Below are positions 23,974 to 64,000 of a stretch of DNA of 64,000 bases, piece by piece. The notes below the pieces were generated by a model that saw nothing but the letters and a program-made list of their open reading frames with translations, had not been told where the DNA came from and searched no databases. The stretch is from Syntrophobacteraceae bacterium (GTDB taxonomy: Bacteria > Desulfobacterota > Syntrophobacteria > Syntrophobacterales > Syntrophobacteraceae): contig PLSV01000201.1 in the NCBI GenBank assembly GCA_003165235.1, positions 1,488 through 65,487 on the forward strand, read 5' to 3'. The translations under genes and the position numbers were made by a program. Each line of letters begins with the position of its first letter. Within the stretch, counting starts at the first letter, position 1.

Positions 23974-24064
23974 CTGACAGAATGCAAACACAATTGCATG
24001 AGTTCGGTGAGTGAAGTTTTTTAAAGGCCGTTTCCACCATACCTGGAGCAGAAGGAGAGTCATT

Positions 24065-24970: not shown

Positions 24971-25008
24971 CCCCTGCGCCGGATGCACGGTGCCTGATGT
25001 ATGAGTTA

Positions 25009-32167: not shown

Positions 32168-32172
32168 GACAA

Positions 32173-42352: not shown

Positions 42353-42382
42353 GATTCTTTATTGAAAACGGCGGACGAGTTA

Positions 42383-47000: not shown

Positions 47001-50000
47001 TTCTGCTGATCCGGATAGGCAATGGACACTCCGGGAGTAAACTCCAGAGTCTTGGCGCATTGGAGGAGAAAATCGGGAGACAGCTTATCGTCGGCGTCCA
47101 AACAGAGTATGTATTTGCCGATTGCCTGGGAGATCCCATTGTTGCGGGCTACGGCGGGTTTACCCGAGTTGGGCTGCCTGATGATTCTTATCGCTTTCGA
47201 GGGGGACTCGTCAATTAGAGACTCGGCGATACTCTGACTATCATCGGTGCTGCCGTCATTAACGATTATGATTTCATAGCTTTGAAGGGACTGGGACAGA
47301 ATGCTTTCCACACATTCCCGCAGGTATCGGCTGTAGTTGTAGCAGGTTATGACGACTGAAATAAGCGGATTGCACTCGCTATGGCCGCTCAAGGCAACTT
47401 GGCCGGGATAGCGCATCTCCATGGCTTTCCAGCCCCGTTGGGCAAGGGCCGCAGCAATTTCCTCGCCTTGGCGTCCCAGTTGGCCCTCCGCAGCCAGTTC
47501 TTCGAGAGCGAATCTTCGAAATACGAAAGAAGGCGATTTCGGCCGGGAGTGGTTGACCGAACCATGCTTTTCATCGTGGCGCCAGGGTGTGATTTTCACG
47601 CAGCCGATAGATTCGATCTGCGCCAGAAGCTTGACAGCTTCGGCGTACGCTTCGGGGGCAACGGCCCCCGGCGGTTCGCCGGGCCAGACTATCCATTCGG
47701 GAGATCCTTCCTTTGATAAAGCTTCCTGAACCCACGCTGTCCCAAGATCGACCAAAGAATAAGGAAGGGCCGCCCGCAAATTGGACACAAACCCGTTCAA
47801 CTCTCCCGCCCCCAGAGAATCGCCAAAGACGCCGATGGCGCGCGTATCTTTCAAGGCATACCGCTTGAATACCACTGACCAATCATTGACGAATACGTCG
47901 CCCTTGGCGACTGTCTTGCTCTGGTCATGGTGCCGGTAGTACGAAAGCACCCGGTCGATAGAATGAAAACGGGCCGATTTCATCATGCGGGCCCAGAGAT
48001 CATGGTCCATTGCAAAGTGAAGGGACGGATCGACGTAGGTCCCGTCGCAAAGCCTCACGGATTCAAGAAGACTGCGCACGAAAAAAATCGCGGGCTGATT
48101 TGGAATAGAGTAAGGGATCCAATACTTCATGAGGTGGTAAAACGATCGCTCGTGATTTGCCTGTTCTTTGAAGGGCTTTCCGGATGGGTCGGCAAGGATG
48201 CATTTACCCATGACCACTGATTTTTGCCCGGACGCCAACTCATGCGCAACGCGGTGGAACGCTTCAGGCGCAAGCCAGTCATCCGAGTTGAGCCAGCAGA
48301 TGATATCCCCTGAGGCCATTGCAAATCCCTTATTCAGGGCGTCACTCTGGCCGTTGTCTTTCTCGGATATCCACTTGAGGTGCGGGAAACGCTTGAGGAC
48401 TTCAACGGTTCCGTCCGTCGATCCCCCGTCGATCACGATGTGCTCGAAGTCAGGATATTGCTGGTCCAAAACGCTTCTTATGTTTTGTTCGATGTAGCCG
48501 GCCTGGTTGAACGACGGGGTAATGACGGAAATCCGGGATCGCCCGGAAGTCTGATTCCTAAAATTCAATTTGGCTTCAGACTTCATCTCTCGAGCAGGCT
48601 CCCCCAGGGTTTCCCGCTGCTGAGCGTTGCAGCCTCTGATCTTATCCAGCCTCAAAAGGAGCGCACTTACATTATTGATCATTTCCATATCATCAGTCTG
48701 AACGCTCAGGATCTGTTCGACCAGTTCGCGGCTTTTCCGGTATTCACAAGTCTCGTAATATAGGACAGCGAGATTGTTGAGCGTCCGGGGGTGATTCGGA
48801 GAAGATTCGAGCAGTGAATGGAACATTTCCTCGGCGTCTTTGACCCTGCCTTGGAGGAAATGAGTAATAGAAACAGCATTAAGAAGTTCCGCTTTCCCCA
48901 TTTGAGACGCAGTGGCAACGATATGCTCAAAGGATCTTTTACTTATCCCTTTCTTCGAATCATAAGCCAGCTTCATTTCTTGCAGGCTAAGGTTCAGCTC
49001 TTCGAGGACACCGGGAAAAGAGGGATCAATTTTGCGCCTCCAGGAATCAAAAACTTCTCTTTGTATTGAGATGGGGTCAACTCCCGGCAGCAACACTGTT
49101 TCGCCTGATTTGCGATGAATTTCTTGCTCTCTTCGAATTACAGCCTCAGCCTCCTCAATGTACTTTGCCCGAAAAACTTCAGACCGTTGGGAAGGCTGGA
49201 ACCGGAATGCTCCGAGAATGCAATTCACCCCGAGAAGTTGAGCGTGGCGGAAGAAACGAAGCCAAAGTTCCAAATCACCGGCAAGACTGAGATTCGTATC
49301 GATGCAACCCGCTTTCTGCCAAAGCGATCTTTTCCAAAACGTGGACTCCTGCTCGATCCATTCATAGTCTCCCGACAGGTATCGCTTGTGCGACCAGGCG
49401 GGAATTTCACCTATATGCCGTAGGTCGCCAGACTCTTTGAGAGTTGTAGGCCGACTGGTGATCCACTCGACATGCGGCAGTTGTGAGAAAATATATGCTA
49501 TTCTGTAGAGAGAGTCGGGCAGAAGTTTATCGTCAGAATTGATCCAGCCCATTATATCGCCGGAAGATCTCTGAAAGCCTGCATTTACGGCGCTGTAGTG
49601 GCCACCATCCGGACCGCTGCTCCAGTAGCTCAGGTGTTTTTCGTATTTCTTGATGATGGTTACAGACTGGTCGGTGCTGCCTCCGTCCATAATGATGTAT
49701 TCCAGGTTTGGATAACCTTGGTCCAGCACCGATTCAATACACTCTTCCAGATAAATCCCTTGATTAAAGGAGGGAGTGACAATCGAGATTTTTGGCAGCC
49801 TGGCACCAGGGGGATGCTCGGGCACAGCACAACTCCCAGGTCGGGGCGACATGAAGGGAAGGAACAATATGGCGTCGGATTGATTCATTCGGCCACCGCA
49901 AACATCTGCGTTCGCCAGGCCTGAAACGTTGCCAGAGATAAAGCTTTCATCGACCTGATCGTCCCAGATGCGAGGGGCTTTCTCTGCTTCCCATTTTGAG

Positions 50001-51262: not shown

Positions 51263-52875
51263 AATAAAGTGAATCCCTTCGACTCATAGATCGCCTTGTT
51301 CCGAGACCTGCTTATCTTCCCGCTGCTCGTTTTCACCAGCGACATGTGTTCGAGAATTTCCACGCGTTTGGGAACAATGCCGACTTCATCCATGATCGCC
51401 TTCTGGATGGCAATCTTCAGCGGGGTCGGCGCATTGCCGTCCTGGCGTTCGGCAAGGACAAAAAGGTCCTGGGTGCCCATCTCTTCGTTCCAGATTCCGA
51501 AGGCGACGACTCGTCCGGGGTAGATGCCCCCCACTGCGGATGCTGCAAACTCCACGTCCTGGGGAAAGATGTTTTTGCCGCAGACGATGATGAGGTCTTT
51601 TTTTCTTCCCGTGATGAAAAGCTCCCCGTGCTCATCAACGAACCCCAGATCACCAGTGAGATAGAACCCGTCGCGCAGCGGCCGCGTGCCGTCGAGAAAG
51701 TTGTTGAACAAGCTCGGAGAGTGGACGCCGATCTCCCCCGCCCCGGTATCTTCCGAATCAAAGACCGCGACTTCCACTCCCGGCAGCGGCTTTCCGCAGG
51801 AGAGAAGCGCGCCTGCCGCATCGAGCCGCTTGGAGTTGCCGTGCCAAGGCAAGGTCTGGGTGACCGCGAAAGTGTTTTCTGCGAGGGCGTAGCAGACGGT
51901 CATGGTTTCGGGGCGAACGGAACGGTACTTTCCGGTGAAAAGTTCATGGCTGCTCAGACGTGCGGGCTCGGAGCAGTTGATCCACATCCGGATGCTGCTG
52001 AGATCGTGCGCCCTGCCCTTGTTCACGAGCAGATGGTAGGCGAAATTCGGAAGGAAACAAAGGGTCGGCTTTTTTTCCTCGATGACCGCCAGCATAATAT
52101 CGGGCTGGGTGATCCAGTCGAAGGGGTCCATCTGATAGAAGGGGGCGCCGCACATGAGGGGCATGAGGTAGCAGGCGATGAGCCCCATATCATGGTAAAG
52201 AGGCAGCCAACTCACGACTGCATCGGAGGGCCCAATCAGCAGGGCGGCGGCGTAGCTTTGCATATGGGCGATAATCCCTCGGTGGCTGAGCACCACGCCT
52301 TTCTGCAATCCGGTGGAACCCGACGAGAACTGGACGAGGGCGTCTTGGGAAGGAAAACCCCGGTCCGCTCCGGGCAGTTCGGGGAGCATCTGCGGGGAGA
52401 AGACCTTCGCCTGCGTGACCTCAGAGTACCTCGCCTGTTCCTGGACGTCGATGAACAGGGCGCCGAATCCGGTTATCTCACGGATGTGATCGATTCTTCG
52501 GCGGTATTCCGATTCGCTGACCTTCGCAGTGGGCGGGCTGATCTGGGCCGGAAGATGGCCCGCTTTCATCGCTCCGATATAGGCTGCGAGCAGATGGATA
52601 TCAAGCTTCTTGATGAAGAGGACAAGCGTGGGTTCGGACAGGTTCCGGGCGAAAAGCGATGCATATCGGCAGACATAGTCCCAGAACTGCTCCCGGGAAT
52701 AAGAAAGCCATTCTCCGCCCGCGCGAACGGAACAGCAAAGAGCGCCGGGGTCCTGCTCACGGAAATATTCGATGCATTCGGGCACGGTGTTCTTTTCAGG
52801 ACAACCGGTTTGCATAGCCATCCATTCATGCGGCTGATAGATAAAGAAACAGAGAGACCGAATTCCCCGATTCAA
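51259..52875 (-). CDS. fatty-acyl-AMP ligase (FAAL-type adenylating enzyme)
   Basis: AMP-binding core FSSGSTGLQKGVVLSH, FAAL-type WLPLYHDMGLI, YALAENT, GDLGFVDEHGELFITGRKKDLII, KTSSGKISR. TGA overlaps the ATG of the 2417-aa ORF. Start may be an internal Met (MAMQTG). Confidence 0.85.
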   Translation of the reverse strand: MNRGIRSLCFFIYQPHEWMAMQTGCPEKNTVPECIEYFREQDPGALCCSVRAGGEWLSYSREQFWDYVCRYASLFARNLSEPTLVLFIKKLDIHLLAAYIGAMKAGHLPAQISPPTAKVSESEYRRRIDHIREITGFGALFIDVQEQARYSEVTQAKVFSPQMLPELPGADRGFPSQDALVQFSSGSTGLQKGVVLSHRGIIAHMQSYAAALLIGPSDAVVSWLPLYHDMGLIACYLMPLMCGAPFYQMDPFDWITQPDIMLAVIEEKKPTLCFLPNFAYHLLVNKGRAHDLSSIRMWINCSEPARLSSHELFTGKYRSVRPETMTVCYALAENTFAVTQTLPWHGNSKRLDAAGALLSCGKPLPGVEVAVFDSEDTGAGEIGVHSPSLFNNFLDGTRPLRDGFYLTGDLGFVDEHGELFITGRKKDLIIVCGKNIFPQDVEFAASAVGGIYPGRVVAFGIWNEEMGTQDLFVLAERQDGNAPTPLKIAIQKAIMDEVGIVPKRVEILEHMSLVKTSSGKISRSRNKAIYESKGFTLL

Positions 52876-53018
52876 ACTTTATACCAACTCCTGAATGGCT
52901 TTGAAGCGTGCAGGCCGAAGGTATATCCCCTGCAATTAAAGTCAAATAGTTGACGATTCTCGCCCCTGCCGCGCCGCATTCATCCGGGAGCAGGGAGCGG
53001 CCCACCAGTCGCATTCCT

Positions 53019-53034
53019 TGGCATGTATGTTGCT
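53019..53034 (+). promoter_or_regulatory. sigma-54 (-24/-12) promoter for the sugar operon
   Basis: TGGCAT-gtatg-TTGCT, one mismatch to TGGCAC-N5-TTGCW, correct spacing; about 130-145 nt upstream of the first gene. Confidence 0.7.
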
Positions 53035-53162
53035 TTTCAGTTCACCCAAGCCAGTTTCATTGCGCCCCGGGCGGGCGCGCCACTCCTGCCCGCCTGAAAA
53101 AAGTAACGGCAAGGCTTCTTATTTTTTGAACTATATTGAACGTTTCTCAGTGAGACGAGTTA

Positions 53163-54143
53163 GTGAGCGGCATGCAGATGCGGGCATTGATCACGGGCAT
53201 ATCGGGCTTTGTGGGTAGCCATCTGGCAAGATATCTTTTGACGCTGGGCGCGGATGTTTGCGGCATTGCCCGCCGTCCGGAAAGCGAATGGAGCTTTCCG
53301 GGCAGTGAACGGCTTGAGGTCTGCACTGGAAACATATTGGATGAGGATTTTCTTCGGAATTGCATCGAAACGATAAGGCCAACGCATGTATTCCATCTCG
53401 CCGGAACCCTGGGCGGTGCTGTGGGCAGCAGCTTGGGCCAGTACGAGAGCAATGCCTGGGGAACGGTAAGGTTGCTGGATGCCCTGCGGGCGCTCAGGCC
53501 GGCCCCCTGGGTCCTGGTCGCGGGTTCGAGCGCGGTCTACGGCCCTGCCGGAAACCTTCCCATTGGCGAGGAGCAGGCTTTCCAGCCGCTGACTCATTAC
53601 GCCGCCAGCAAGGCAGCGCAGGAACTGGTCGCAATACAGCATCACCTTGCATACGGGATGAACATCGTTCGGACAAGAACATTCAATCTGGTCGGCCCGG
53701 GGTTGTCCCGCGCATTGGCGCCCTCTGAACTGGCCTACCAGGTCGCCCATGCGGAGGCAGGGGGGCCCTCCGTGATCCAGGTTGGCAACCTGGCCCCGCG
53801 ACGTGACTATTCGGATGTCCGGGATGTGGTCCGCGCCTACGTGGCGCTGGCAGCCGCCAGCAGGCCCGGAGAGGTCTTCAATGTCTGCAGTGGACATTCC
53901 CGCTCCGTTCAGGAGTGCGCGGAGATACTGACTGGAATGGCAAGGGCGCCGGTGAGGCTCGAAGTCAACTCTGCGCGCATGAGAAGGGTTGAGATCGAAG
54001 ACCAGGTGGGCAACGGCGAACGATTGGTAAATAGAACCGGCTGGCAGCCGCTAATCCCCATCGAAAAGAGCCTCGGGGACCTTCTGGACTGCTGGCGACA
54101 CAAATTGAATGTAGCGGGGGAAGCATGTCCTGGAAGGATGTGA
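53163..54143 (+). CDS. NAD-dependent NDP-sugar epimerase/reductase (extended SDR, Rmd-like)
   Basis: MRALITGISGFVGSHL Rossmann motif, YAASKAA (YxxxK). Start uncertain: GTG 53163, ATG 53172 or ATG 53178. Confidence 0.8.
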   Translation: MSGMQMRALITGISGFVGSHLARYLLTLGADVCGIARRPESEWSFPGSERLEVCTGNILDEDFLRNCIETIRPTHVFHLAGTLGGAVGSSLGQYESNAWGTVRLLDALRALRPAPWVLVAGSSAVYGPAGNLPIGEEQAFQPLTHYAASKAAQELVAIQHHLAYGMNIVRTRTFNLVGPGLSRALAPSELAYQVAHAEAGGPSVIQVGNLAPRRDYSDVRDVVRAYVALAAASRPGEVFNVCSGHSRSVQECAEILTGMARAPVRLEVNSARMRRVEIEDQVGNGERLVNRTGWQPLIPIEKSLGDLLDCWRHKLNVAGEACPGRM

Positions 54144-55114
54144 GGGTGCTCGTAACTGGAGCGGGAGGCTTTATCGGCAGCCACCTCGTTGAGGAACTGG
54201 CGGGTCAGGGCGCTCGCGTGCGTGCATTTGTCAGGTATAACTCAAGGGGGGACTTCGGGTTCCTGAAATTCCTGCGCGCCGAATTGAGGCAAACCCTGGA
54301 AATTGTTCAGGGCGACCTGCGCGATCCATCCGCCCTGCTGCGCGCGATGGACGGGTGCACCTACGTTTTCCATCTCGGGGCAATGATTTCGATCCCTTAT
54401 TCCTACATTCACCCCCGGGAGGTAATAGAGACAAATATTCTCGGGACCCTCAACGTCCTGGAGAATTCCAGGCTGACCCGCCCCGACAGGGTCATACACG
54501 TATCGACAAGCGAAGTTTACGGGACCGCCAGAACTGTTCCCATTTCCGAGAATCACCCGCTGCAGGGGCAGTCGCCTTATTCGGCAAGCAAAATAGGTGC
54601 TGACAAGGTAGCGGAAAGCTACTACCGGGCATTCGACGTTCCGGTGATCACCGTGCGGCCCTTCAACACCTACGGACCCAGGCAGTCGGCGCGAGCGGTC
54701 ATTCCAACCATCATCACGCAGGCGCTGACAAAAGAGCATGTCCGCCTGGGCGCCCTGACGCCCACCCGTGATTTCACATTTGTTCAGGATACCGTCCGGG
54801 GGTTTATTTCTGCAGCCGTGGCGGACGGGGTGCTCGGCACTGAAATAAATCTCGGGAGCAATCGTGAGATCAGCATAGGCGACTTGGTGGATCTGATTGT
54901 CAAGCTTGTTGGAAAGCCAGTGGAAGCGCTTCGCGACGAGAAGCGCCTGAGACCAGGAAAGAGCGAGGTGGAGCGGCTTCACGCCGATAACTCGCTGGCT
55001 GCCCGGCTGTTGGGCTGGAAACCGTCGGTTTCCTTGACGGACGGTCTGGGCAGGACGATTGCATGGATAAAAGATCATCTCGATCTGTACCGAATCGAAG
55101 AATGCTGCGTTTAG
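54125..55114 (+). CDS. NDP-sugar 4,6-dehydratase-like extended SDR (PseB/LegB/RfbB class)
   Basis: VLVTGAGGFIGSHL, STSEVYG, YSASKIGADK. Confidence 0.8.
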   Translation: MSWKDVRVLVTGAGGFIGSHLVEELAGQGARVRAFVRYNSRGDFGFLKFLRAELRQTLEIVQGDLRDPSALLRAMDGCTYVFHLGAMISIPYSYIHPREVIETNILGTLNVLENSRLTRPDRVIHVSTSEVYGTARTVPISENHPLQGQSPYSASKIGADKVAESYYRAFDVPVITVRPFNTYGPRQSARAVIPTIITQALTKEHVRLGALTPTRDFTFVQDTVRGFISAAVADGVLGTEINLGSNREISIGDLVDLIVKLVGKPVEALRDEKRLRPGKSEVERLHADNSLAARLLGWKPSVSLTDGLGRTIAWIKDHLDLYRIEECCV

Positions 55115-55148
55115 CCATGGTCAACACCCTTGAGGAAAGGAACCGACA

Positions 55149-55952
55149 ATGCAAGCAGTGATATTGGCCGGAGGCCGTGGCGCCCGTCTTGCGCCATACA
55201 CTACGGTGCTGCCTAAACCCTTGATGCCGGTTGGCGACATGCCAATCCTGGAGATACTGATCCGTCAACTGCAGGTCACCGGAGTCAAAAAGGTCTTCGT
55301 CGCCGTCGGCCACCTCGCGTCATTGATCATGGCCTATTTCGGCAAGGGAGAGCATGTCGGAATGCCGATCGAATACTCCTTCGAGCCTTCCCCGCTGGGA
55401 ACGGCCGGCCCGCTGAGCCTGATTCCCAAGCTGGAGAATACCTTTCTTGCCATGAATGGAGACCTGCTCACCGACCTGGACTTTCGCGCCATGATCAGGG
55501 CGCATCGGGAAGCCGGCGCTGCAGCCACTGTCGGCCTTTACACCAGGGATGTCAAAATCGACCTGGGGGTCGTTGAAACGAACGCATGCAGCCAGATTAC
55601 CCACTACAGAGAGAAGCCGGTTTATCATTACCAGGTGAGCATGGGGGTATACGTGTTCGAACCAACGGTGCTGCGCTTCATTCCCCGTGAAATGCGCCTC
55701 GATATGCCCGAACTCGTCCGGAAGCTCATCGAGGCGGGAGAGCATGTGATAGGATACCATCACTCCGGCTACTGGCTCGACATTGGCCGACCCGACGATT
55801 ATCAGACGGCGCAGGATGATTTCGAGCGCATGTCGTCGACGCTTCTGGGGAATGGCTCGGCGCCCTCGGTCCATCGTCAGATCCTCCTGAACGACTACGC
55901 ACGCGTATCGCCGGCCGTTCCGACCAACGGCCGGATGCAAAAATCCGCATGA
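55149..55952 (+). CDS. sugar-1-phosphate nucleotidyltransferase
   Basis: MQAVILAGGRGARLAPYTTVLPKPLMPV: GGxGxRL...KP signature of NTP-transferases. Confidence 0.8.
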   Translation: MQAVILAGGRGARLAPYTTVLPKPLMPVGDMPILEILIRQLQVTGVKKVFVAVGHLASLIMAYFGKGEHVGMPIEYSFEPSPLGTAGPLSLIPKLENTFLAMNGDLLTDLDFRAMIRAHREAGAAATVGLYTRDVKIDLGVVETNACSQITHYREKPVYHYQVSMGVYVFEPTVLRFIPREMRLDMPELVRKLIEAGEHVIGYHHSGYWLDIGRPDDYQTAQDDFERMSSTLLGNGSAPSVHRQILLNDYARVSPAVPTNGRMQKSA

Positions 55953-56311
55953 TCGCAGCCTCAGCACTTTTGGATCCCGGCCCAGGCCGGGGTCCGGCAT
56001 TCTCGCAGTAACCCCATAATTTCGAAGCCCAGGTTCGTAGTAAAAACGCCGTAAAAAGTGAAGTCAGAAGATTGACAGTTGTAATAGGTCCATCTGCTTA
56101 CAGGATCGATCGAGTCAACGATTCTGTAAGAATTTAAGTTACTGGAACGAGCATCGCGGAGCCGGTTTTTGATAGATCTTACGCCCGCCCGTTGCTTGAC
56201 CGGAAATAGGCGCCCCAGCCCATGCGCAAGAACCCGGCAATGGCTCTGCAAGTTTAAAAGAGCAATGAAATTTGCTCTATGTCCCGATATTTTTGTGAGT
56301 TGGTATAGATT

Positions 56312-57463
56312 TTGATCGAATCAGAAAGATGCGAGGCGGCGGGTATTCTCCTGCCTGTCAAAGCCTCGTGCGCACAACGGGGAGAGATCGTGGCCGAAAA
56401 AAACGTACCGATCAACAAGGGCAACTATTCGCTCGATACCATCGAAAGGGAGTCGCTCTTCGAAGAGCGCCGGTCAGAGGGATGGGAGCCTGAGTACCGG
56501 GAATACAGGCGGAACTGGGCCTGTTTGCCCGAACAGCAGACAGTTTCCGGCTATCCGTTGTTGATCGATGTGGAACTGGCTTCGATCTGCAATTTAAAAT
56601 GCCCAATGTGCTACACCATTAAGGAGGAGTTCAAAAAGAAAGTCAAATCGGCTCTCATGGACTTCGATCTCTTTAAGAAGATCGTAGACGAAATAGGAGG
56701 GAAAGTCCCCGCCTTGAGGCTGAGTCTGAGAGGAGAGCCTACCCTCCACCCTCGGTTTACCGAATGCATCCGCTATGCGGTGCAGAGCGGAATCAAGGAA
56801 GTATCTTTTCTGTCCAACGGCAGCATGCTGAGCGCAGAATATTTCGAAAAGATAATGAGGGCGGGAGCGAACTGGATCACTTTATCGGTAGACGGCCTTG
56901 ACAGGACCTATGAGAAGATCCGCAAACCGCTGAAATTTTCGAGCACGCTTGAGAAAATAGCGGAAATTAAAACTATCAAGGAGAGGGCATCCTTTCACAA
57001 ACCGGTGATCAAGGTCCAGTCGGTGTGGCCCGCTATCAGGGAAAATCCCGAAAAATACTATAATACGTTTCTCCCCCACACCGATCTCATAGCCTTCAAT
57101 CCACTCATAGACTACCTGGGGAAGGATGAACAGATAGTCTACGAGGAAGATTTTTCCTGCCCTCAACTCTATCAGAGGCTTGTTGTAGGCGCAGACGGCC
57201 TGGTCATGATGTGCTCCAATGACGAGGAAAATACGGTCGTTGTCGGAGACGCGAAACATCAGCGCGTCTGCGAAATATGGCGCGGCCGGGAGTTAAACTC
57301 CGTGAGGGAAATCCACAGGAAGAGAAATGGCTTCATGCAGATTCCGGTTTGCAAGAAATGCTATCTTCCCAGAAAAACTGAAAATTCAGAACGGGCCGTA
57401 GTGAACGGCAGGGAAATAATTGTCCGCAACTACATAAACAGGCAACAGCGCGTGGGTGAATAA
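56312..57463 (+). CDS. radical SAM enzyme with C-terminal SPASM/twitch-like Cys-rich domain
   Basis: CNLKCPMC = CxxxCxxC cluster motif; C-terminal cysteines in FSCPQ, MMCSND, VCEIW, PVCKKCY. Likely real start is GTG 56390, preceded by GGAGAG. Confidence 0.8.
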   Translation: MIESERCEAAGILLPVKASCAQRGEIVAEKNVPINKGNYSLDTIERESLFEERRSEGWEPEYREYRRNWACLPEQQTVSGYPLLIDVELASICNLKCPMCYTIKEEFKKKVKSALMDFDLFKKIVDEIGGKVPALRLSLRGEPTLHPRFTECIRYAVQSGIKEVSFLSNGSMLSAEYFEKIMRAGANWITLSVDGLDRTYEKIRKPLKFSSTLEKIAEIKTIKERASFHKPVIKVQSVWPAIRENPEKYYNTFLPHTDLIAFNPLIDYLGKDEQIVYEEDFSCPQLYQRLVVGADGLVMMCSNDEENTVVVGDAKHQRVCEIWRGRELNSVREIHRKRNGFMQIPVCKKCYLPRKTENSERAVVNGREIIVRNYINRQQRVGE

Positions 57464-57513
57464 GACTGCGTGTCTCCAATCCTTCGGGGTTCGGACACTC
57501 TGCGCATCGGTGA

Positions 57514-58548
57514 ATGTCAACGGCAGGGGTGGATATGCTCAGGAGCTACAGGCGCGACAGGCGCTACATCATTGCAGAAATCGGCGGCAACTTCACCACC
57601 TTTGAAGAAGCCAGGGCGCTGGTCGACGCCGCGGCCGCCTGCGGCGTTGATGCAGTAAAGTTGCAGACTTACCGAGGGGACACTTTGGCGAGCAGGAGCG
57701 CGATTTTCGACATGGAGAATACGGGCGTCACCTCTCAGTACGACCTCTTCAAGAAGTACGAAATAGACGAGGAGCTTCACCGTAAAATATTTGACTATAT
57801 CGGTTCAAAGGGGCTCGACTGGTTCTCGACTCCTTCCCATGAAACCGATGTGGATATGCTCGAAAATCTCGGCGTCGGAGCATACAAGATCGGTTCGGAC
57901 GACGCCGTAAATATCCCTTTTCTTAAATATATCGCCAAGAAGGGCAAGCCGGTCCTGCTCTCCACCGGGATGTGCTCGATGGAGGAGGTCCGGGAGTCCG
58001 TTTCGGCCGTCCTGGGAGAAGGAAACGCGCAGTTGACTCTGTTGCATGCGATCACCAGTTATCCGGCGCATGCCGAAGATGTGAACCTGCTCGCGATGAA
58101 AAAGATGATGGAAGAGTTCCCGCTCCCCGTCGGCTACTCGGACCATACACTGGGCTCCGTAGCCTGCCTTGCCGCCGCCGCCATGGGCGCGGCCGTCATT
58201 GAAAAGCATTTTACGATCGACAAGAATGCCGAAGGGCCGGACCACATGCTTTCCGCCGACCCCGCCGAGATGAAATCCATCGTGGATCAGATCAGGGTGA
58301 TGGAAAAGATGCTGGGCAGCGGAATAAAGATGCCGGCAGCATCGGAGGCCACAACCAGGGTCAACAACCGCAAGAGCATCGTCGCGGCAAAAGCGATCAA
58401 AGCCGGATACGGAATAGAGTCTAATAACATTGCGATTAAAAGGCCCGGATACGGAATTGCGCCAAAATATTTCGAGCAAATCCTGGGGCGCAGGGTCAAC
58501 CGTGACATAAGCGAAGACGAAGTGATTGCATGGAGCGACCTGGGATGA
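57514..58548 (+). CDS. NeuB-family nonulosonic acid synthase (PseI/LegI/SpsE-like)
   Basis: IIAEIGGNF, VDAVKLQTY, HAITSYPA, GYSDHTLG, C-terminal SAF domain (IAIKRPGYGI). Alternative ATG at 57535. Confidence 0.85.
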   Translation: MSTAGVDMLRSYRRDRRYIIAEIGGNFTTFEEARALVDAAAACGVDAVKLQTYRGDTLASRSAIFDMENTGVTSQYDLFKKYEIDEELHRKIFDYIGSKGLDWFSTPSHETDVDMLENLGVGAYKIGSDDAVNIPFLKYIAKKGKPVLLSTGMCSMEEVRESVSAVLGEGNAQLTLLHAITSYPAHAEDVNLLAMKKMMEEFPLPVGYSDHTLGSVACLAAAAMGAAVIEKHFTIDKNAEGPDHMLSADPAEMKSIVDQIRVMEKMLGSGIKMPAASEATTRVNNRKSIVAAKAIKAGYGIESNNIAIKRPGYGIAPKYFEQILGRRVNRDISEDEVIAWSDLG

Positions 58549-59219
58549 CGGGCATAATGCTTCAGGCAAGGATGGGGTCAACCAGGCTTCCCGGCAAAGT
58601 GATGAAGAACATATGCGGGAGGACGATGCTCGAGCATATCCTTATCCGCCTGAAACTGGCGACCGAAGCTGACATGCTCATCGTCGCGACCACCACCAAA
58701 GATATGGACGATTGCATTTGCGAACTTGCCCTGAGCCAGGGGGTCTTTTGTTACAGAGGCGACGAAGCTGACGTGCTCGACCGCTATTACCAGGCGGCGG
58801 TTCATTTCGGACTACGCCACATCGTGAGGGCCACCGCGGACAACCCCCTGGTGGACCCCGAAGAGATAGACCGCCTCATCCGGCTCCATAAGGACACCTC
58901 GGCGGATTATACGCATGCTTTCGGGCAACTGCCGCTTGGAGTCGGAGCGGAGTGTTTCACGATGGAGGCCCTTGAACGCTCATGGATGGAAGGTGTTGAG
59001 CCCAATCACCGGGAACACGTCAATGAGTACATCCAGGAGCGGCCTCGGATGTTCCATATCGAACAACTCGAAATCCCGGAAAAGAAGCGGGCGCCTTTGC
59101 TCAGACTCACGGTGGACACGGTTGAGGACCTGCAGAGGGTCGGCTCTATTTATGAATCGTTATACGTGGCGGGCTGCTGGATAAGCACAGAGGAAGCGAT
59201 ACGCGCATGCGCACTGTAA
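58545..59219 (+). CDS. cytidylyltransferase, CTP_transf_3 (PseF/SpsF-like CMP-sugar synthetase)
   Basis: MLQARMGSTRLPGKV motif; ATG 58545 overlaps the preceding stop as ATGA. Confidence 0.8.
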   Translation: MTGIMLQARMGSTRLPGKVMKNICGRTMLEHILIRLKLATEADMLIVATTTKDMDDCICELALSQGVFCYRGDEADVLDRYYQAAVHFGLRHIVRATADNPLVDPEEIDRLIRLHKDTSADYTHAFGQLPLGVGAECFTMEALERSWMEGVEPNHREHVNEYIQERPRMFHIEQLEIPEKKRAPLLRLTVDTVEDLQRVGSIYESLYVAGCWISTEEAIRACAL

Positions 59220-60208
59220 TATGCATAGAGGCATCCCACCAACGGGGGATGGGACATCTCTTTCGCGGTCTGCGCCTTGCGAAAGCGCTCCGCGCGGCTG
59301 GCGATGAGATTCTCTTTGCAGTAAACGATGACCGGCGGTCGCTGGAGATCCTCTATTCCGAAGGGTTCGATGCTGAAGCAGTCCCCTCTTACGCCTCGGG
59401 ACCCGACTGGGAAGAAGGAATCCTGCGAAGGCGCCGCCCGGACTGGTGGATCAACGATCGCCTGGACACGGCGGCAGCACATGCCGAGAAAGTTCTCGGC
59501 TCCGAGGTCATGCTTGCAACCTTCGACGACCATGGAGACGGCGGGCTTTCCGCCGCTTTCAATGTTCTCGCCATGGACCTTAAGCCGTTGGAAAGAATGC
59601 CGAACGGTCTCTATGGGACAGAGTACATCATCCTCGATCCCGAAATCGAAAAATGCCGGGCCGCGCTCCCGGTGCGCGGCGACCCATCAGAGATCCTGGT
59701 TACCCTTGGCGGAAGCGACACTTATGGGATGACCCCGCGCGTCCTCTCCGCACTGGGCGGAATGCAAATTCCCCCGGCGGCCTGCGTTTCGGTCGGACCG
59801 AATTTCAACCACCGCGAGGCGCTGAACTCAGCCCTGGCGAATTACCCTGGACGTGTCCGTATCTATGACAATCCATCGAGCCTCATTGGGCTGATCGTAA
59901 AAGCCGAAATCATCGTCTGCGGCGGAGGGGTGACGCTTTTCGAAGCAGCCGCGCTCGGCATCCCGGCCCTGGCGATAGCAAACGAACCTCATGAAATCCC
60001 CATAGTCCAATGGTTCGAAGAGAAGGGGTTTTGCATCTGCCTCGGATTTCGTGAAAACGGGGTTGAGAGCCGGTTATCGTCCGCACTACCGAACTTGCTT
60101 TCCGGAAGCGATCGTCTTGAGCAGATGAGCATAACCGGGAGGCGCCTTGTCGACGGGAGGGGTCTGGAACGGATCGTGGCCAGGATCAGGGGAGACCGGC
60201 ATGAGTGA
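59207..60208 (+). CDS. PseG/SpsG-like NDP-sugar hydrolase (GT28-like fold)
   Basis: N-terminal IEASHQRGMGHLFRGLRLAKAL and C-terminal GGGVTLFEAAALGIPALAI resemble PseG/SpsG proteins. Confidence 0.65.
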   Translation: MRTVICIEASHQRGMGHLFRGLRLAKALRAAGDEILFAVNDDRRSLEILYSEGFDAEAVPSYASGPDWEEGILRRRRPDWWINDRLDTAAAHAEKVLGSEVMLATFDDHGDGGLSAAFNVLAMDLKPLERMPNGLYGTEYIILDPEIEKCRAALPVRGDPSEILVTLGGSDTYGMTPRVLSALGGMQIPPAACVSVGPNFNHREALNSALANYPGRVRIYDNPSSLIGLIVKAEIIVCGGGVTLFEAAALGIPALAIANEPHEIPIVQWFEEKGFCICLGFRENGVESRLSSALPNLLSGSDRLEQMSITGRRLVDGRGLERIVARIRGDRHE

Positions 60209-60896
60209 GAAAACCGCGGTTATTCATCAACCCGACTTTCTGCCGCACCTAGGCTTTTTCCACAGGCTGCTGCAGGCGGACATCTTCATAATTCTCGATC
60301 ATGTCCCGCTCTCCAAGAGCGGATGGGTGCATCGGGACAAGATCAAAACGCCCCAGGGCGAACAGTGGATAACAATCCCGGTGAAAAAGAACGGCCTGCA
60401 GCCGCTCATCTGCGAGGCAGAGATCGACTACAACCCGCATTACGGCAAAATCCAGAAACTGCTGCATGCCCACTACTCCCATGCTCCCTTTTTCCAGGAG
60501 ATTTACCCTCCCCTGCGGGAAGTCATGGAACGACGGCAGGCAAGGCTTGTCGATTTCAACCTGGACCTGTTGAACCTGGCGCTGAACTGGTTTGATATTC
60601 GGATTGAAAAAATAGAGATCAGCAGCACCCTCGGAATAACGACTCGGAAGTCTCAAATGAACGCGGACCTGGTAGCCGCCGCCGGAGGCGCCGTTTACCT
60701 CTCCGGACCGGGGGCAAAAGCCTATCATGAAGATGGGCCCTTCTCCCAGGCCGGACTCACCGTCGCCTGGCAGGATTTCCACCACCCGGTCTATCAGCAG
60801 CAACACGGACCTTTTATCCCTTACCTGAGCTGTATCGACCTCTTTTTCAACTGCGGCATCCTTAACTCTCAAAAGATATTACGGAGCTGTGTATGA
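60201..60896 (+). CDS. WbqC-like family protein
   Basis: ATG 60201 (M19 of track ORF). VIHQPDFLPHLGFFHRL ... ITIPVKK matches the WbqC-like N-terminus as I recall it. Confidence 0.65.
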   Translation: MSEKTAVIHQPDFLPHLGFFHRLLQADIFIILDHVPLSKSGWVHRDKIKTPQGEQWITIPVKKNGLQPLICEAEIDYNPHYGKIQKLLHAHYSHAPFFQEIYPPLREVMERRQARLVDFNLDLLNLALNWFDIRIEKIEISSTLGITTRKSQMNADLVAAAGGAVYLSGPGAKAYHEDGPFSQAGLTVAWQDFHHPVYQQQHGPFIPYLSCIDLFFNCGILNSQKILRSCV

Positions 60897-61519
60897 ACAT
60901 ACTTGCGCTTGGCGCTCATTTCGACGACATCGAACTGGGTTGCGGCGGCGCCATGGCGAAGCACATCGCCAAAGGCGATAGGGTCTATGCGTATGTGGCG
61001 ACCGTATCGGGTTTCATTGGTCCAAACAACAACATCGTCCGGACGAACGAAACGGCGCTGGCGGAAGGGCGGGACGCAATGGGCATCCTTGGCGTCGAGC
61101 TTATCTGCGGCAATTTCAAGACCCTCGAGATCGAATTCACTGAAGCCCTCAACGTTGACATCCTGCGAATCGTAGAAGAGAAGAACATAGAGAAAGTTTA
61201 CACCCATTGGATGGGCGACATACACCATGACCATCAGGCGGTTGCAAGGGCTTCTCTGCATGCATGCAGATGGGTGCCAAGACTGCTTATGTACCGCAGC
61301 AACTGGTATCATTCGAACCTGGACTTCAGGGGTAATTTCTACATAGACATAAGCGATTTCCTAAACAAGAAAATCGAGTCCATACAAGCCCACAAGTCGG
61401 AAATGGAGCGGACAAGAGACAGATGGGTAAGTTTTTTCACCAAAGAGGCGGAGAATGCCGGCCAGCGCATCGGCGCAAGGTACGCGGAAGTTTTCGAAGT
61501 AGTCAAATGGCTTGAATAG
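60893..61519 (+). CDS. PIG-L/LmbE-family deacetylase
   Basis: ILALGAHFDDIELGCGG and HHDH motifs; ATGA overlap with preceding stop. Confidence 0.8.
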   Translation: MNILALGAHFDDIELGCGGAMAKHIAKGDRVYAYVATVSGFIGPNNNIVRTNETALAEGRDAMGILGVELICGNFKTLEIEFTEALNVDILRIVEEKNIEKVYTHWMGDIHHDHQAVARASLHACRWVPRLLMYRSNWYHSNLDFRGNFYIDISDFLNKKIESIQAHKSEMERTRDRWVSFFTKEAENAGQRIGARYAEVFEVVKWLE

Positions 61520-61605
61520 TGCCCGCCCACCCGGGATGAGAGACAGCGGCGGGCGCAACCTGCTCCGCAATCTATAGCAACTGCCTTGCTGTTGGAGGAC
61601 CAGAA

Positions 61606-62364
61606 ATGAAAGTCGTTGGGACCATTGAAGCAAGAATGGGCTCAACCCGGCTGCCGGGAAAAAGCCTGATGGAGATCTACGGCGGCATGCCGCTTATCGA
61701 GGCGGTGACGGAGCGCTTCAGGATGTGCAGGAATGTGGATGCGGTCTGGGTCGCTACGACCACCGAACCCGCAGACGACGCCATAGCCCAATGGTGCAGG
61801 GCAAACGAAGTAGACTGTTTCCGGGGCTCCGAGCAGGACGTCCTGGACCGTGTGGCCAAAACCGCAATGGAGGCAAGGGCGGATGCGGTTGTCCAGATGG
61901 GTGCGGATTCCGCCTATCTTGATTTCAAGCTGATCGATGCAATGGTCAAGGTATTCAAACGCGGCGGGTGCGATTACCTTTGCAATGACCTTGAGCTGAC
62001 CTATCCCCTCGGCATTTACGCCCACGTCATAAGGGTTTCCTGCCTTGTTGCGCTCAATCGGAGGGCCGAGTTGACCGAGCAGGAGCGCGAAGATGTTGTA
62101 CGATACATCTACGAGCATCCGAACGAGCACCGTGTCGCCAACATCACGGCGCCTACCGAATTCGCATATCCGGGGCTCAGATTGACCATCGACTATCCCG
62201 AAGACCTGGAGCTGGCGCGCACGATCTATGCGCGCTTCGGAGGCTGCCGCTTCACGACCGGGGACGTGATCGGGCTCTACCGGAATGAACCGGAGCTATT
62301 CAAAAAGACCAGGGGCCTCGTCCAGCGCTCGGCGCCTTTCCTGAAAAGGGCTGCAAATGAATAG
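61606..62364 (+). CDS. cytidylyltransferase, CTP_transf_3, second paralogue
   Basis: GTIEARMGSTRLPGKSL motif, parallel to 58545..59219. Confidence 0.75.
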   Translation: MKVVGTIEARMGSTRLPGKSLMEIYGGMPLIEAVTERFRMCRNVDAVWVATTTEPADDAIAQWCRANEVDCFRGSEQDVLDRVAKTAMEARADAVVQMGADSAYLDFKLIDAMVKVFKRGGCDYLCNDLELTYPLGIYAHVIRVSCLVALNRRAELTEQEREDVVRYIYEHPNEHRVANITAPTEFAYPGLRLTIDYPEDLELARTIYARFGGCRFTTGDVIGLYRNEPELFKKTRGLVQRSAPFLKRAANE

Positions 62365-63379
62365 AAAGCTAAGCGCGGCCATAATCGGGGCGGGCCGGAT
62401 CGCAGGGGGCTACGATACCGAGAAGATCGGCAGCGATGCCGGCGTCTACACCCATGCCGGCGCCTATACCCGTGACGAAAGGTTCGTGCTCCGCACCGTT
62501 TGCGACCTTGACGGATCGCAGGCCGAGAGTTTCCGCAAGCAATGGAACATCGGCTCGGCTACGTCGCACCCTGAAGAGATCTACACAGATTATCACGACG
62601 TCATCAGCGTCTGCACGCCTGACACAGCCCACTTCGAAGTTATTCGAAATATTCTCGAACATGGTGCGTGCAGGACAATTTTCGCCGAGAAGCCCCTCGC
62701 CACAACCCGTGACGAGATAGCGCACCTCAGGCGCCTTGCTGAGGAGCACGGCGTGAATCTCGTGGTGGATTATCAGCGCCGGTTCGACAACCGCCACGCA
62801 AGAGTCCGGGACCTCATCTCCCGAGGCAGGCCCGGCCTGCTCGCCGTCAATGCCTTTTACATGAAGGGCCTCGAACACAACGGAGTTGCGCTCGTCGATA
62901 CCCTGACCTACCTCTGCGGGCCACCCGATGCGGTGCTTGCCTACAACCGGGTCTTCAACAGCACGGTTGGGGAGTACTCCTATGACTTCATCCTTTTTTT
63001 TGAGCGCTTCAACGCAACCGTCAGAACGATAGACACCGATTCATCCGAATACCACTACCACATCTTCGAAGTGGACCTTCTTTTCTCCGACAGGAGGATG
63101 ACCATCAACGACAATTCCCGGACACTCGAGCAGCGTATGGTGGGAGAGTACGCCTACGGCGGCGTCAAGGCGCTCGATGACAAAAACCCGCTGCGTGAGG
63201 ATACCGGCTATCGGTTCGCACTGCCCGCCGCAGTCGATTATATCTACGAAATCACCGTTAACAACAAGGTCCACGACCGGAACACACCGGAATCGTCCCT
63301 TATTGACAGGGCGATTCTCGACGCGATCCTGCTGTCATACGAAAACAAAACAAAGATACCAATGGGAGCACCGGTATGA
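62357..63379 (+). CDS. Gfo/Idh/MocA-family oxidoreductase
   Basis: AIIGAGRIAGG, VCTPDTAHF, FAEKPL: NAD(P)-binding N-terminal domain pattern. Confidence 0.8.
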   Translation: MNRKLSAAIIGAGRIAGGYDTEKIGSDAGVYTHAGAYTRDERFVLRTVCDLDGSQAESFRKQWNIGSATSHPEEIYTDYHDVISVCTPDTAHFEVIRNILEHGACRTIFAEKPLATTRDEIAHLRRLAEEHGVNLVVDYQRRFDNRHARVRDLISRGRPGLLAVNAFYMKGLEHNGVALVDTLTYLCGPPDAVLAYNRVFNSTVGEYSYDFILFFERFNATVRTIDTDSSEYHYHIFEVDLLFSDRRMTINDNSRTLEQRMVGEYAYGGVKALDDKNPLREDTGYRFALPAAVDYIYEITVNNKVHDRNTPESSLIDRAILDAILLSYENKTKIPMGAPV

Positions 63380-64000
63380 AGAAGGTCCGAACAGCACCCC
63401 TGCCACCCTACAATCCCTTTGGCCCTGAGGAAGTCGCAACGGTTGCCGAGGTAGTCAAAAGCGGCATGTTGTCCGATTTCATCGGGCGGGATTGCGAAAA
63501 ATTTCTTGGTGGAAAGCATGTCCGGGAACTCGAACAGCGATGGGCCGAATACCACCGGGTCAAACATGCCGTCTCATTCAATACCGCAAGCTCCGCACTG
63601 GTCGCAGCAATCGGAGCGTCCGGCATTCTGCCGGGGGACGAGATCATCGTGGTCGCATATAGCATGTGCATATCCGCAACCGCCCCTCTATTCTACGATG
63701 CCGTGCCGGTCTTTGCCGATCTCGAAGAAGAGCATTACTGCATGGACCCCGACAGTCTTGCGCGGAAGATCACGCCACGGACAAGGGCGGTCCTGAGCGT
63801 GGACCTGTTCGGGCAATCCTCGGATATGGACCGGATAAATGCCGTTGCGAAACGGCATGACCTGAAGGTGATCTGCGATGCGGCCCACGTGCCGGGATGC
63901 GAATACAACGGCGGCTTTGCGGGGACTTTTGGCGACATCGGCGTCTTCAGCCTCAACCAGCACAAGATAATCCACTGCGGCGAGGGGGGCATTGCCGTCA
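63376..64000 (+). CDS. DegT/DnrJ/EryC1/StrS-family aminotransferase (3' end beyond window)
   Basis: Absent from the ORF track because it has no stop in the window. ATG 63376 overlaps the previous stop (ATGA). My translation gives AVSFNTASSALVAAI, GDEIIVVAYSMCISA, FSLNQHKIIHCGEGG (PLP lysine). Confidence 0.8.
   Translation, partial: MKKVRTAPLPPYNPFGPEEVATVAEVVKSGMLSDFIGRDCEKFLGGKHVRELEQRWAEYHRVKHAVSFNTASSALVAAIGASGILPGDEIIVVAYSMCISATAPLFYDAVPVFADLEEEHYCMDPDSLARKITPRTRAVLSVDLFGQSSDMDRINAVAKRHDLKVICDAAHVPGCEYNGGFAGTFGDIGVFSLNQHKIIHCGEGGIAV

Follow-up and report, generated by a model that had tools for sequence, protein, structure and literature searches.

We analyzed a 64,000-nucleotide stretch of contig PLSV01000201.1 from a Syntrophobacteraceae bacterium (hereafter, the window), the right-hand end of which carries a gene cluster related to the biosynthesis of nonulosonic acids (NulOs). 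From position 53163 to the window end, the list of open reading frames (ORFs) together with Pfam and NCBIfam profile searches revealed 12 ORFs, all on the plus strand, which upholds the coordinates and families of the twelve co-directional genes described in an initial annotation of this sequence. The gene junctions overlap in 6 of 11 cases, by 4 to 19 bases, and the ATGA start/stop overlaps reported at 58545, 60893 and 63376 are present. The assignment of these genes to a NulO-type pathway also stands; none of the legionaminic (Leg), pseudaminic (Pse) and neuraminic (Neu) acid pathways is matched gene for gene, and the core enzymes all score below the curated NCBIfam cut-offs for these three. 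The cluster represents a widespread and conserved variant of NulO biosynthesis for which we found no published study.

The first gene of the cluster encodes a short-chain dehydrogenase/reductase (SDR1; 53163/53172–54143; Pfam Epimerase/GDP_Man_Dehyd). It is followed by genes for a LegB-like 4,6-dehydratase of nucleoside diphosphate (NDP)-N-acetylhexosamines (54125–55114; TIGR04180, TSE and YxxxK motifs) and a sugar-1-phosphate nucleotidylyltransferase (55149–55952; NTP_transferase). A non-coding gap of 437 bp (55953–56389), at the usual place of a small SDR gene, separates them from the gene of a BtrN/DesII-like radical S-adenosylmethionine (SAM) enzyme with Radical_SAM and SPASM domains (56390–57463, in an ORF open from 56312). 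Translation of the latter most likely begins at GTG 56390, preceded by a GGGGAGAG ribosome-binding site; the protein then has 357 aa, the same length as its homologues. Then come genes encoding a NeuB-family ulosonic acid synthase (57514/57535–58548; NeuB and SAF domains), the start of which is called at 57535 on the parent contig, a first SpsF-like cytidylyltransferase (58545–59219; CTP_transf_3), a PseG/SpsG-like NDP-sugar hydrolase recognized by TIGR03590 only (59207–60208), a WbqC-family protein (60201–60896; WbqC), and a PIG-L/LmbE-family sugar N-deacetylase (60893–61519; PIG-L). The last three genes encode a second SpsF-like cytidylyltransferase (61606–62364; CTP_transf_3), a Gfo/Idh/MocA NAD(P)-dependent oxidoreductase (Gfo; 62357–63379; GFO_IDH_MocA) and a pyridoxal phosphate-dependent aminotransferase of the DegT family (63376–64000; DegT), cut by the window end.

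The cluster continues past position 64000, where the initial annotation had to stop. An exact look-up of the Gfo protein led to its parent contig L001, a contig of 113.9 kb from a metagenome; where it overlaps the window, the two sequences are identical. Downstream of the complete DegT gene (425 aa), L001 carries five further genes on the same strand. The first encodes a B12-binding radical SAM protein and the second a 351-aa protein, which weakly matches a Tannerella BFO_1060-family glycosyltransferase and polysialyltransferase. They are followed by genes for a 354-aa MptE/DUF115 (Maf-like) protein (L001 14828–15892; score 35.1 bits, cut-off 34.6) and a methyltransferase and, last, by one for a hexapeptide acyltransferase of the CatB/Vat type with 329 aa (L001 16978–17967). 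Beyond the acyltransferase lie unrelated genes on the minus strand. With these five genes, the cluster therefore comprises about 17 genes. The nearest genome, the metagenome-assembled genome (MAG) SPRUCE_480 of a Syntrophobacteraceae member, retains the same layout at 84–97% protein identity, including the adenosine monophosphate (AMP)-ligase-like and giant glycosyltransferase genes that lie divergently from the cluster. No RNA element was matched in Rfam over 51000–64000 at E ≤ 0.1, and the yield of promoter and terminator scans was at or below shuffle expectation.

Two conserved cassettes

A scan of one genome per species detected relatives of the radical SAM protein in at least 541 species. 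The ORFs of 88 loci were compared with the cluster proteins, and the cassette counts given below refer to 80 genome loci among these species. We found that 47 of the 80 loci possess a common module, cassette A, with the gene order 4,6-dehydratase, nucleotidyltransferase, small SDR, radical SAM, NeuB, SpsF-like, SpsG/PseG-like, WbqC, PIG-L. The window contains eight of these nine genes in the same order, at 28–78% identity to other genomes, and the place of the small SDR is empty. The radical SAM, WbqC and PIG-L proteins are kept across phyla at 38–76% identity, and they are fixed members of this cassette, common to hundreds of species. Thus, the view of the initial annotation that they are additions by which a Pse/Leg core was locally expanded is not supported, nor is it for the second cytidylyltransferase and Gfo, which together with DegT form a second conserved cassette (cassette B) rather than local extras.

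Some members of cassette A vary. The small SDR (287 aa) is present at 42 of the 47 loci, an MptE-like gene follows PIG-L at 27, and a gene for a 188-aa hexapeptide acyltransferase is sometimes inserted between the radical SAM and neuB genes; among the loci with cassette A that span 20 kb or more, ten lack DegT altogether. The carriers include Clostridium saccharoperbutylacetonicum, Campylobacter concisus, many Rhizobium species (R. leguminosarum and R. etli among them), members of the Leptospiraceae, Brocadiaceae, Elusimicrobia and Chlorobiaceae, and Aliarcobacter butzleri, in which the cassette lies inside a Wzz/Wzx polysaccharide locus. C. concisus, A. butzleri and the two named Rhizobium species carry cassette A without cassette B. 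Compared with plasmids, the radical SAM protein matched two rhizobial chromids only, without useful annotation. The NulO cluster of Leptospira interrogans was considered as an instance of cassette A and ruled out, being a standard Leg cluster with LegG, and a paper on flagellar Pse of Clostridium does not mention the cassette genes.

As for the core enzymes, the cassette A dehydratase is LegB-like at 41 of the 47 loci, where the protein of the window is 48–57% identical to it, and of the Polysacc_synt_2 type at three. The window protein reaches 434.7 bits with TIGR04180 (cut-off 475), its YxxxK motif reading YSASK. The nucleotidyltransferase (267 aa; NTP_transferase, 135.6 bits) has 43–50% identical counterparts at 43 of the 47 loci. 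Its best NCBIfam matches, mannose-1-phosphate (Man-1-P) guanylyltransferase (158.7 bits) and MurU (120 bits), are both below the cut-offs, and by its family it is predicted to supply the NDP-sugar substrate. The NeuB protein (NeuB, 293.4 bits, with the SAF domain also matched) is 56–78% identical within cassette A. The initial annotation had left its clade to profile placement, and we found it below both the NeuB (TIGR03569, 363 against 399.65 bits) and the PseI (295.6 against 340.25 bits) equivalog cut-offs. Among solved structures it is about equally distant from PseI (187 bits), SpsE (1vli; 181 bits) and NmNeuB (169 bits). The first cytidylyltransferase (CTP_transf_3, 105.1 bits; 43–65% identical within cassette A) is presumed to be a CMP (cytidine monophosphate)-ulosonate synthetase; its best match in the PDB is the uncharacterised cytidylyltransferase 6oew, and both cytidylyltransferases of the cluster are nearer to 6oew than to KdsB. 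The PseG/SpsG-like protein (28–51% identical within cassette A) scores 89.5 bits with TIGR03590 (cut-off 153.55) and has no match in Pfam and no sequence match in the PDB. The neuB, spsF-like and spsG-like genes, the first of them taken from 57535, are adjacent and mutually overlapping, in the order spsE-F-G.

In turn, the genes of cassette B are translationally coupled, and just 5 of the 47 loci with cassette A carry them. Wherever cassette B was seen (L009, L020, L024, L045, L066, L090 and L091), it lay directly behind cassette A. The second cytidylyltransferase is succeeded by Gfo and DegT in L020, L024, L066, L090 and L091, and in the betaproteobacterial MAG L045 by Gfo and then the end of the locus. 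A search with the cytidylyltransferase independently reached two cases of the combined arrangement, Citrifermentans (Geobacter) bemidjiense Bem and Herbaspirillum sp. HC18. At 44–71% identity, cassette B is found in a Leptospiraceae MAG, in Sideroxyarcus and in a Desulfobacterales MAG. The second cytidylyltransferase (CTP_transf_3, 87.3 bits) is about 30% identical to the orthologues of the first one at other loci, and its own homologues (56–69% identical) are named SpsF by JGI. The Gfo protein matches GFO_IDH_MocA with 61.6 bits over the N-terminal (Rossmann) domain only; its best NCBIfam match is iolG (69 bits), UDP-GlcNAc 3-dehydrogenase gives 47 bits, and it is 44–50% identical to its counterparts at other loci with both cassettes.

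The DegT fragment in the window scores 174.7 bits in Pfam, so that its family as initially annotated is right. Its label as a core Pse/Leg homologue is doubtful, since the protein is not of the LegC or PseC type: it reaches 201.5 bits with PseC (cut-off 423.5) and 163.4 with LegC (TIGR04181, cut-off 420). Among solved structures, those nearest to it are a mixture of perosamine synthases, inosose aminotransferases and KdnA (5k8b, E 2.5e-42), and its likeness to KdnA and the inosose aminotransferases is as great as that to aminotransferases of NDP-sugars. It is 65–71% identical to the DegT proteins of L020, L024 and L066, and 26–33% to the LegC-like ones at other cassette A loci. Leg clusters of the Campylobacter jejuni type carry PtmE, PtmF and PtmA, and we considered whether Gfo and the extra SDR are the PtmF and PtmA of an ordinary Leg cluster. 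This was set aside, as Gfo forms a cassette of its own with the second cytidylyltransferase and DegT.

The radical SAM enzyme, its SDR partner and the WbqC/PIG-L pair

Homologues of the radical SAM enzyme are very numerous (53–73% identical), and across cassette A loci the identity is 50–67%. In 20 family members, the CxxxCxxC motif (C67/C71/C74) and four further Cys residues (C257, C275, C321 and C324) are invariant. With the family profile, the best match in the PDB was the C-terminal (twitch) domain of BtrN (residues 164–252, E 3e-12), and three of the four auxiliary Cys residues pair with Cys of BtrN in the printed profile alignment. Foldseek with an AlphaFold2 (AF2) model of the enzyme (mean predicted confidence, pLDDT, 84.6) retrieved BtrN first (E 5.5e-10, TMt 0.68–0.74), with SuiB and DesII close behind. 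By profile and by model, the enzyme is closest to BtrN and then to DesII. It shares with them the CxxxCxxC motif and the C-terminal auxiliary-cluster domain with four Cys residues, but the identity is only about 16%, the enzyme of the cluster is extended at the N-terminus by about 50 residues, and it occurs in a NeuB cluster together with an SDR partner, sometimes as a fusion of the two; its activity is a predicted one. BtrN is the 2-deoxy-scyllo-inosamine dehydrogenase of butirosin synthesis and DesII the deaminase of thymidine diphosphate (TDP)-4-amino-4,6-dideoxyglucose. Both are radical SAM enzymes acting on cyclitols or sugars, and both begin by abstracting a hydrogen atom from their cyclitol or NDP-sugar substrate, at a carbinol carbon.

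A functional link between the small SDR and the radical SAM enzyme follows from fusions of the two into proteins of about 640 aa (e.g., P0005, P0028 and L007/L008 10001–11923). On the fusion-bearing metagenomic contigs L007/L008, genes for flagellin, FliW and FlgK lie within a few kb of the cassette. In the window, the first gene of the cluster encodes an SDR of another kind. SDR1 scores 159.7 bits with Epimerase, its similarity to LegB is weak (127 bits), and the alignment, with motifs SSA...YAASK and without the dehydratase Glu, marks it as an extended SDR of the epimerase/reductase type. The same SDR1-first layout is found in L009, a 92%-related Syntrophobacteraceae MAG. In the window, SDR1 probably takes the role that the small SDR has elsewhere as partner of the radical SAM enzyme. 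A remnant of the small SDR within the 437-bp gap was ruled out, as tblastn with small SDRs found none there; the gap is likewise without a match in Rfam and without any convincing promoter or terminator.

The radical SAM family occurs in a second context as well, at 53–59% identity (L053, L063, L070, L074, L075, L078 and L083). There, the radical SAM gene is preceded by genes for a different NeuB (36–39% identical), a DUF4910/DUF2172 M28-like protein and a FemAB-like GNAT protein, and followed by a gene for a carbamoyltransferase or a B12-radical SAM protein. The NeuB proteins of this context, too, score below the NeuB and PseI cut-offs. Full-text searches of the library returned no paper linking a radical SAM enzyme with NulO synthesis, and co-mentions of radical SAM and pseudaminic were found only under unrelated titles.

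The WbqC protein (Pfam, 205.8 bits) is about 40–50% identical among cassette A loci and is always paired with the PIG-L gene. Sequence comparison with the PDB gave no match, and neither did Foldseek at E < 0.001 with the AF2 model (pLDDT 95.1). The literature describes the WbqC family only as uncharacterised, and in our literature searches no published function was found for either WbqC or the radical SAM enzyme in the context of a NulO cassette. The PIG-L protein (Pfam, 57.8 bits) has its best NCBIfam match in BshB1 (70.6 bits, below the cut-off) and is 63–76% identical at most cassette A loci, and 52–53% in L051 and L086. In mycothiol synthesis, the MshB deacetylase is followed by MshC, an ATP-dependent ligase acting on the freed amine. 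By analogy, one may speculate that PIG-L and WbqC constitute a deacetylase plus ligase pair of the MshB/MshC kind.

No acetyltransferase of the cluster is encoded inside the window, as initially annotated. Even on the extended contig L001 we detected no clear N-acetyltransferase, since the hexapeptide acyltransferases resemble O-acetyltransferases rather than NeuD/PglD. The downstream 329-aa protein scores 56.4 bits with the LegH/NeuD/PglD model TIGR03570 (cut-off 160.8), and its best matches are CatB and Vat. Only its C-terminal 150–190 residues match CatB/Vat; the N-terminal 130–150 residues are without a family match.

Proposed pathway and alternative explanations

We consider it likely, with a probability of about 0.7, that the two-cassette cluster of this Syntrophobacteraceae-like bacterium makes, tailors, CMP-activates and transfers a nonulosonic sugar. 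As no study of the cassette was found, the sugar is probably not a textbook one. Most likely, it would be a tailored 9-deoxy nonulosonic acid in which the radical SAM enzyme and the SDR set an unusual stereocentre or a deoxy position, the substituent at N5 is replaced or free and, in the variant with both cassettes, an extra amine and methyl groups are present.

Gene content, the conservation and linkage of the cassettes and the structural class of the radical SAM enzyme are direct results of the analysis, whereas we infer the product and every chemical step, the latter from family membership, homology and gene order. The nucleotidyltransferase and the LegB-like dehydratase would yield an NDP-4-keto-6-deoxy-hexosamine. 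The radical SAM enzyme would abstract a hydrogen at a carbinol carbon and SDR1 reduce the resulting ketone, with net epimerisation or deoxygenation. The likeness to BtrN and DesII, together with the fused or adjacent SDR, makes this two-step reading, i.e., radical oxidation or elimination and then reduction by NAD(P)H, the most economical one. The SpsG/PseG-like hydrolase may then free the sugar, NeuB join it to phosphoenolpyruvate (PEP), and the SpsF-like enzyme convert the product to a CMP-sugar, as their homology and spsE-F-G-like order suggest. PIG-L could strip the N-acetyl group derived from GlcNAc and, more speculatively, WbqC could act on the freed amine. For a Leg route based on SpsG and SpsF, Bacillus subtilis is a precedent, and so is Ca. 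Kuenenia for a Leg-like cluster in which two cytidylyltransferases and a deacetylase lead to a free-amine CMP-NulO. In cassette B, Gfo and DegT would turn a hydroxyl into an amine, and the second cytidylyltransferase would activate the result; the downstream B12-radical SAM protein and methyltransferase may add methyl groups. The MptE/Maf-like protein, the sialyltransferase-like 351-aa protein and the giant glycosyltransferase with TPR repeats are candidates for installing the sugar on a protein or glycan.

The amination step has a parallel in the synthesis of 8-amino-3,8-dideoxy-D-manno-octulosonic acid (Kdo8N) in Shewanella, which requires the oxidase KdnB, a metal-dependent alcohol dehydrogenase, and the aminotransferase KdnA. 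The logic would be shared, with a hydroxyl of an ulosonic acid oxidised and the carbonyl then transaminated, and DegT is akin to KdnA. However, the oxidoreductase here is of the Gfo/Idh/MocA family, and a dedicated cytidylyltransferase lies inside cassette B.

Several points weigh against this reading. Since the loci were found by way of the radical SAM protein or the second cytidylyltransferase, the co-occurrence counts are biased towards those genes. As no enzyme of the cluster attains a curated equivalog cut-off, the substrates named above are guesses. The window is devoid of the small SDR held by 42 of the 47 cassettes, and SDR1 is only 24–28% identical to it. At the second-context loci, the radical SAM gene accompanies another NeuB and no SDR is found close to it; the enzyme may therefore act on the finished ulosonic acid and not on the NDP-sugar. 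The idea on WbqC builds on weak top Foldseek matches, cores of class I aminoacyl-tRNA synthetases (TM about 0.3, E > 0.03), and the acyltransferases found are of the CatB/Vat/WbbJ (O-acetyl) type only. Finally, tblastn with the flagellin of L007 found no flagellin in the window or at the other loci, and no other acceptor was found in the window.

A rather improbable extension is that the cassette makes an undescribed class of ulosonic acid. A backbone carbon might be deoxygenated or inverted by the radical SAM enzyme and its SDR, or, in the variant with both cassettes, the chain might be C-methylated by the B12-radical SAM protein; WbqC would be an enzyme of new fold that re-derivatises the amine freed by PIG-L. 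If true, either change could account for the CMP-activated C10 or otherwise unassigned ulosonic acids that mass spectrometry has recently revealed in environmental bacteria.

It is unlikely that the cluster is an ordinary Leg pathway of the C. jejuni or Bacillus subtilis sps type, making di-N-acetyllegionaminic acid (Leg5Ac7Ac) with DegT as LegC and with the other genes as decorations. B. subtilis makes legionaminic acid via SpsM, SpsC, SpsD and SpsG, as well as SpsE and SpsF (PMC7439481). In both systems the synthase, SpsF-type and SpsG/PseG-type genes are adjacent, with a non-epimerising PseG-like hydrolase replacing LegG; the B. subtilis route through SpsE, SpsF and SpsG thus provides a precedent for such a hydrolase in a Leg-type route, and the same gene order there leads to Leg. 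The LegB score near its cut-off (434.7 against 475 bits) also fits, as does the resemblance of DegT to GDP-perosamine synthases, 4-aminotransferases acting on GDP-4-keto-6-deoxy sugars. Yet, the cluster possesses a LegB-type dehydratase with its own nucleotidyltransferase instead of the Polysacc_synt_2 protein SpsM acting on UDP-GlcNAc, has neither an SpsC-type aminotransferase (DegT is of another subfamily) nor an SpsD GNAT protein, and adds the radical SAM/SDR pair, WbqC, PIG-L and the entire cassette B.

With the CMP-Leg pathway of C. jejuni (PtmE, LegB, LegC, LegH, LegG, LegI, LegF), the cluster has in common a LegB-like dehydratase beside a sugar-1-phosphate nucleotidyltransferase, a NeuB-type synthase and a CTP_transf_3 enzyme. 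It differs in its extra conserved enzymes, in the size of the nucleotidyltransferase (267 aa versus 352 aa reported for the PtmE homologue of Plesiomonas) and in that no orthologue of LegG, LegH or LegC was found at the cut-off. In particular, no hydrolysing 2-epimerase of the LegG type lies between the AMP-ligase gene and the cluster end on L001, the PseG-like protein being encoded instead. Besides the low LegC score (163 against 420) and the NeuB score under the cut-off, the ordinary Leg pathway is contradicted by the lack of a NeuD/PglD-type N-acetyltransferase (56 bits against 160.8), by the ten loci of 20 kb or more that have cassette A but no DegT, and by the translational coupling of DegT to Gfo and the second cytidylyltransferase rather than to LegB. 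Moreover, the radical SAM (50–67%), PIG-L (63–76% at most loci) and WbqC (about 40–50%) proteins are conserved like NeuB and are therefore unlike an optional decoration. Nor does the Pse pathway match, with PseB at 51 (cut-off 407.75), PseC at 201.5 (423.5), PseG at 89.5 (153.55) and PseI at 295.6 (340.25) bits, and with no match to the PseH and PseF models listed among the cluster proteins.

Nearest among published descriptions is the Leg-like legB...neuB cluster of Ca. Kuenenia stuttgartiensis, with two cytidylyltransferase homologues and a deacetylase, associated with a free-amine CMP-NulO; it is reported in the 2026 SugarBase preprint (10.64898/2026.04.20.719630), which also describes unexplained CMP-activated C10 ulosonic acids in Magnetospirillum. 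As the Kuenenia NulO has a Leg/Pse mass, this cluster speaks for the ordinary pathway. By the description in the preprint, two cytidylyltransferases and a deacetylase are present in both clusters, but a formyltransferase belongs to that of Kuenenia, for which a radical SAM enzyme and WbqC are not mentioned, and the cluster studied here has Gfo, DegT and the B12-radical SAM protein in place of LegC and the formyltransferase. We found that in a Brocadiaceae MAG (L051) the order is LegB, nucleotidyltransferase, DegT, PIG-L ... radical SAM, NeuB, SpsF-like, SpsG-like, WbqC, i.e., the same as described for Kuenenia, with the radical SAM and WbqC genes besides. The interval of L051 between PIG-L and the conserved radical SAM gene (5195–9610) encodes two methyltransferases, a sulfotransferase and a second, distant radical SAM/SPASM protein, which suggests further tailoring of the sugar, possibly sulfation.

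Still less probable is that the cluster serves two separate CMP-activated products, an ulosonic acid from cassette A and an unrelated CMP- or CDP-linked amino sugar or aminocyclitol from cassette B, also used by the glycosyltransferases. This would agree with the low identity (about 30%) of the second cytidylyltransferase to the orthologues of the first and its association with an oxidoreductase and an aminotransferase of its own, with inositol 2-dehydrogenase as the best match of Gfo, with the resemblance of DegT to scyllo-inosose and 2-deoxy-scyllo-inosose (2-DOI) aminotransferases, and with CMP-linked HexNAc-like species without a keto acid reported in Magnetospirillum. However, at all seven loci where cassette B was seen, including the two reached independently, cassette A lies directly upstream, the cluster contains neither an inositol-phosphate synthase gene nor any other gene for a precursor, and the match of Gfo is limited to the Rossmann domain. 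Finally, that NeuB joins PEP to a non-hexosamine, such as a pentose or heptose, giving an ulosonic acid of 8 or 10 carbons, is very improbable: NeuB does fall outside the curated NeuB and PseI models, about equally far from the PseI, SpsE and NeuB structures, the nucleotidyltransferase also resembles heptose-1-phosphate and Man-1-P guanylyltransferases, and CMP-activated C10 ulosonic acids of unassigned origin exist, but the LegB-like dehydratase, PIG-L and the PseG-like hydrolase indicate an N-acetyl-hexosamine route, and heptose or pentose pathway genes are absent from the cluster.

Between a single tailored NulO and two CMP-sugars, the alternatives of the initial annotation, we regard the former as the more probable. 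Nonulosonic acids decorate flagella, S-layers, capsules and lipopolysaccharides and shape phage and immune recognition, and mass-spectrometric surveys report many bacterial ulosonic acids without assigned genes. Solving the pathway would give the WbqC Pfam family a chemistry, add a radical step to sialic-acid-like biosynthesis and supply candidate genes for unexplained CMP-sugars. Among the carriers are C. concisus and A. butzleri, both human-associated, Rhizobium, a plant symbiont, and C. bemidjiense, which is easily grown, and such cultured carriers make the cassette directly testable.

Divergent neighbors and other genes of the window

Upstream of the cluster, two genes are read from the minus strand. 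The first (51259–52875) encodes a fatty-acyl-AMP-ligase-like adenylating enzyme, which matches Pfam AMP-binding with 145.2 bits and the FAAL/FACL models with 190–223 bits, below their cut-offs. The second (44009–51262) encodes a 2417-aa protein with TPR repeats, three GT2 and two GT4 domains. Homologues of the AMP-ligase gene are located next to mptE in L015 (Desulforapulum; 64% identical) and are found in L009 (90%) and, at the same position, in C. bemidjiense (L090), and in all three the gene is followed by a homologue of the multi-domain glycosyltransferase gene (53% in L015, 84% in L009). In C. bemidjiense Bem (CP001124, 4,248,276–4,269,028), the order is cassette A, a methyltransferase, cassette B, a second methyltransferase, a 361-aa protein, the MptE-like protein, the AMP-ligase and very large multi-domain glycosyltransferases. 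The suggestion of the initial annotation that the divergent giant glycosyltransferase is tied to the pathway is thereby strengthened, as the mptE-like, AMP-ligase and multi-domain glycosyltransferase genes adjoin the same cassette in L015 and L090. This conserved neighborhood in Desulforapulum and C. bemidjiense suggests that the giant glycosyltransferase and the AMP-ligase work with the pathway, and from its domains the 2417-aa protein is likely a glycan-building or protein glycosyltransferase using the products. Convergent with its gene lies one on the plus strand for a DUF4301 protein (42362–43984; 617.7 bits in Pfam, no match in NCBIfam).

A second, separate polysaccharide locus with GT4 and GT2 genes occupies 1639–18706, mostly on the minus strand. 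It includes genes for RmlD (7146–8066), RmlC (8063–8614), an SDR (9952–10968) and a GNAT protein (12610–13221), as well as for a methyltransferase, an Acyl_transf_3 protein and, at 24–1718, an ABC exporter. Its DegT protein (8798–9952) is PseC/ArnB/LegC-like, with 334.8 bits for PseC and 276 bits for LegC, both below the cut-offs. Together with the GNAT protein, it could in principle supply the 4-aminotransferase and N-acetyltransferase that the main cluster is missing.

Between the two sugar loci lie regulatory and energy-metabolism genes. Sigma-54 response-regulator activators are encoded at 20320–21702 and 25711–27063, a PAS histidine kinase at 27095–28663 and a hybrid REC-PAS-HisKA_3 kinase at 36880–38517; two ORFs of the same region (23136–23771 and 23888–24988) are without a Pfam match. 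The plus-strand genes at 29202–34111 constitute a membrane-bound hydrogenase/complex-I-like module, with a NuoL/Mrp-type antiporter subunit, a NuoH-like protein and a NuoD/[NiFe]-large-subunit-like protein.

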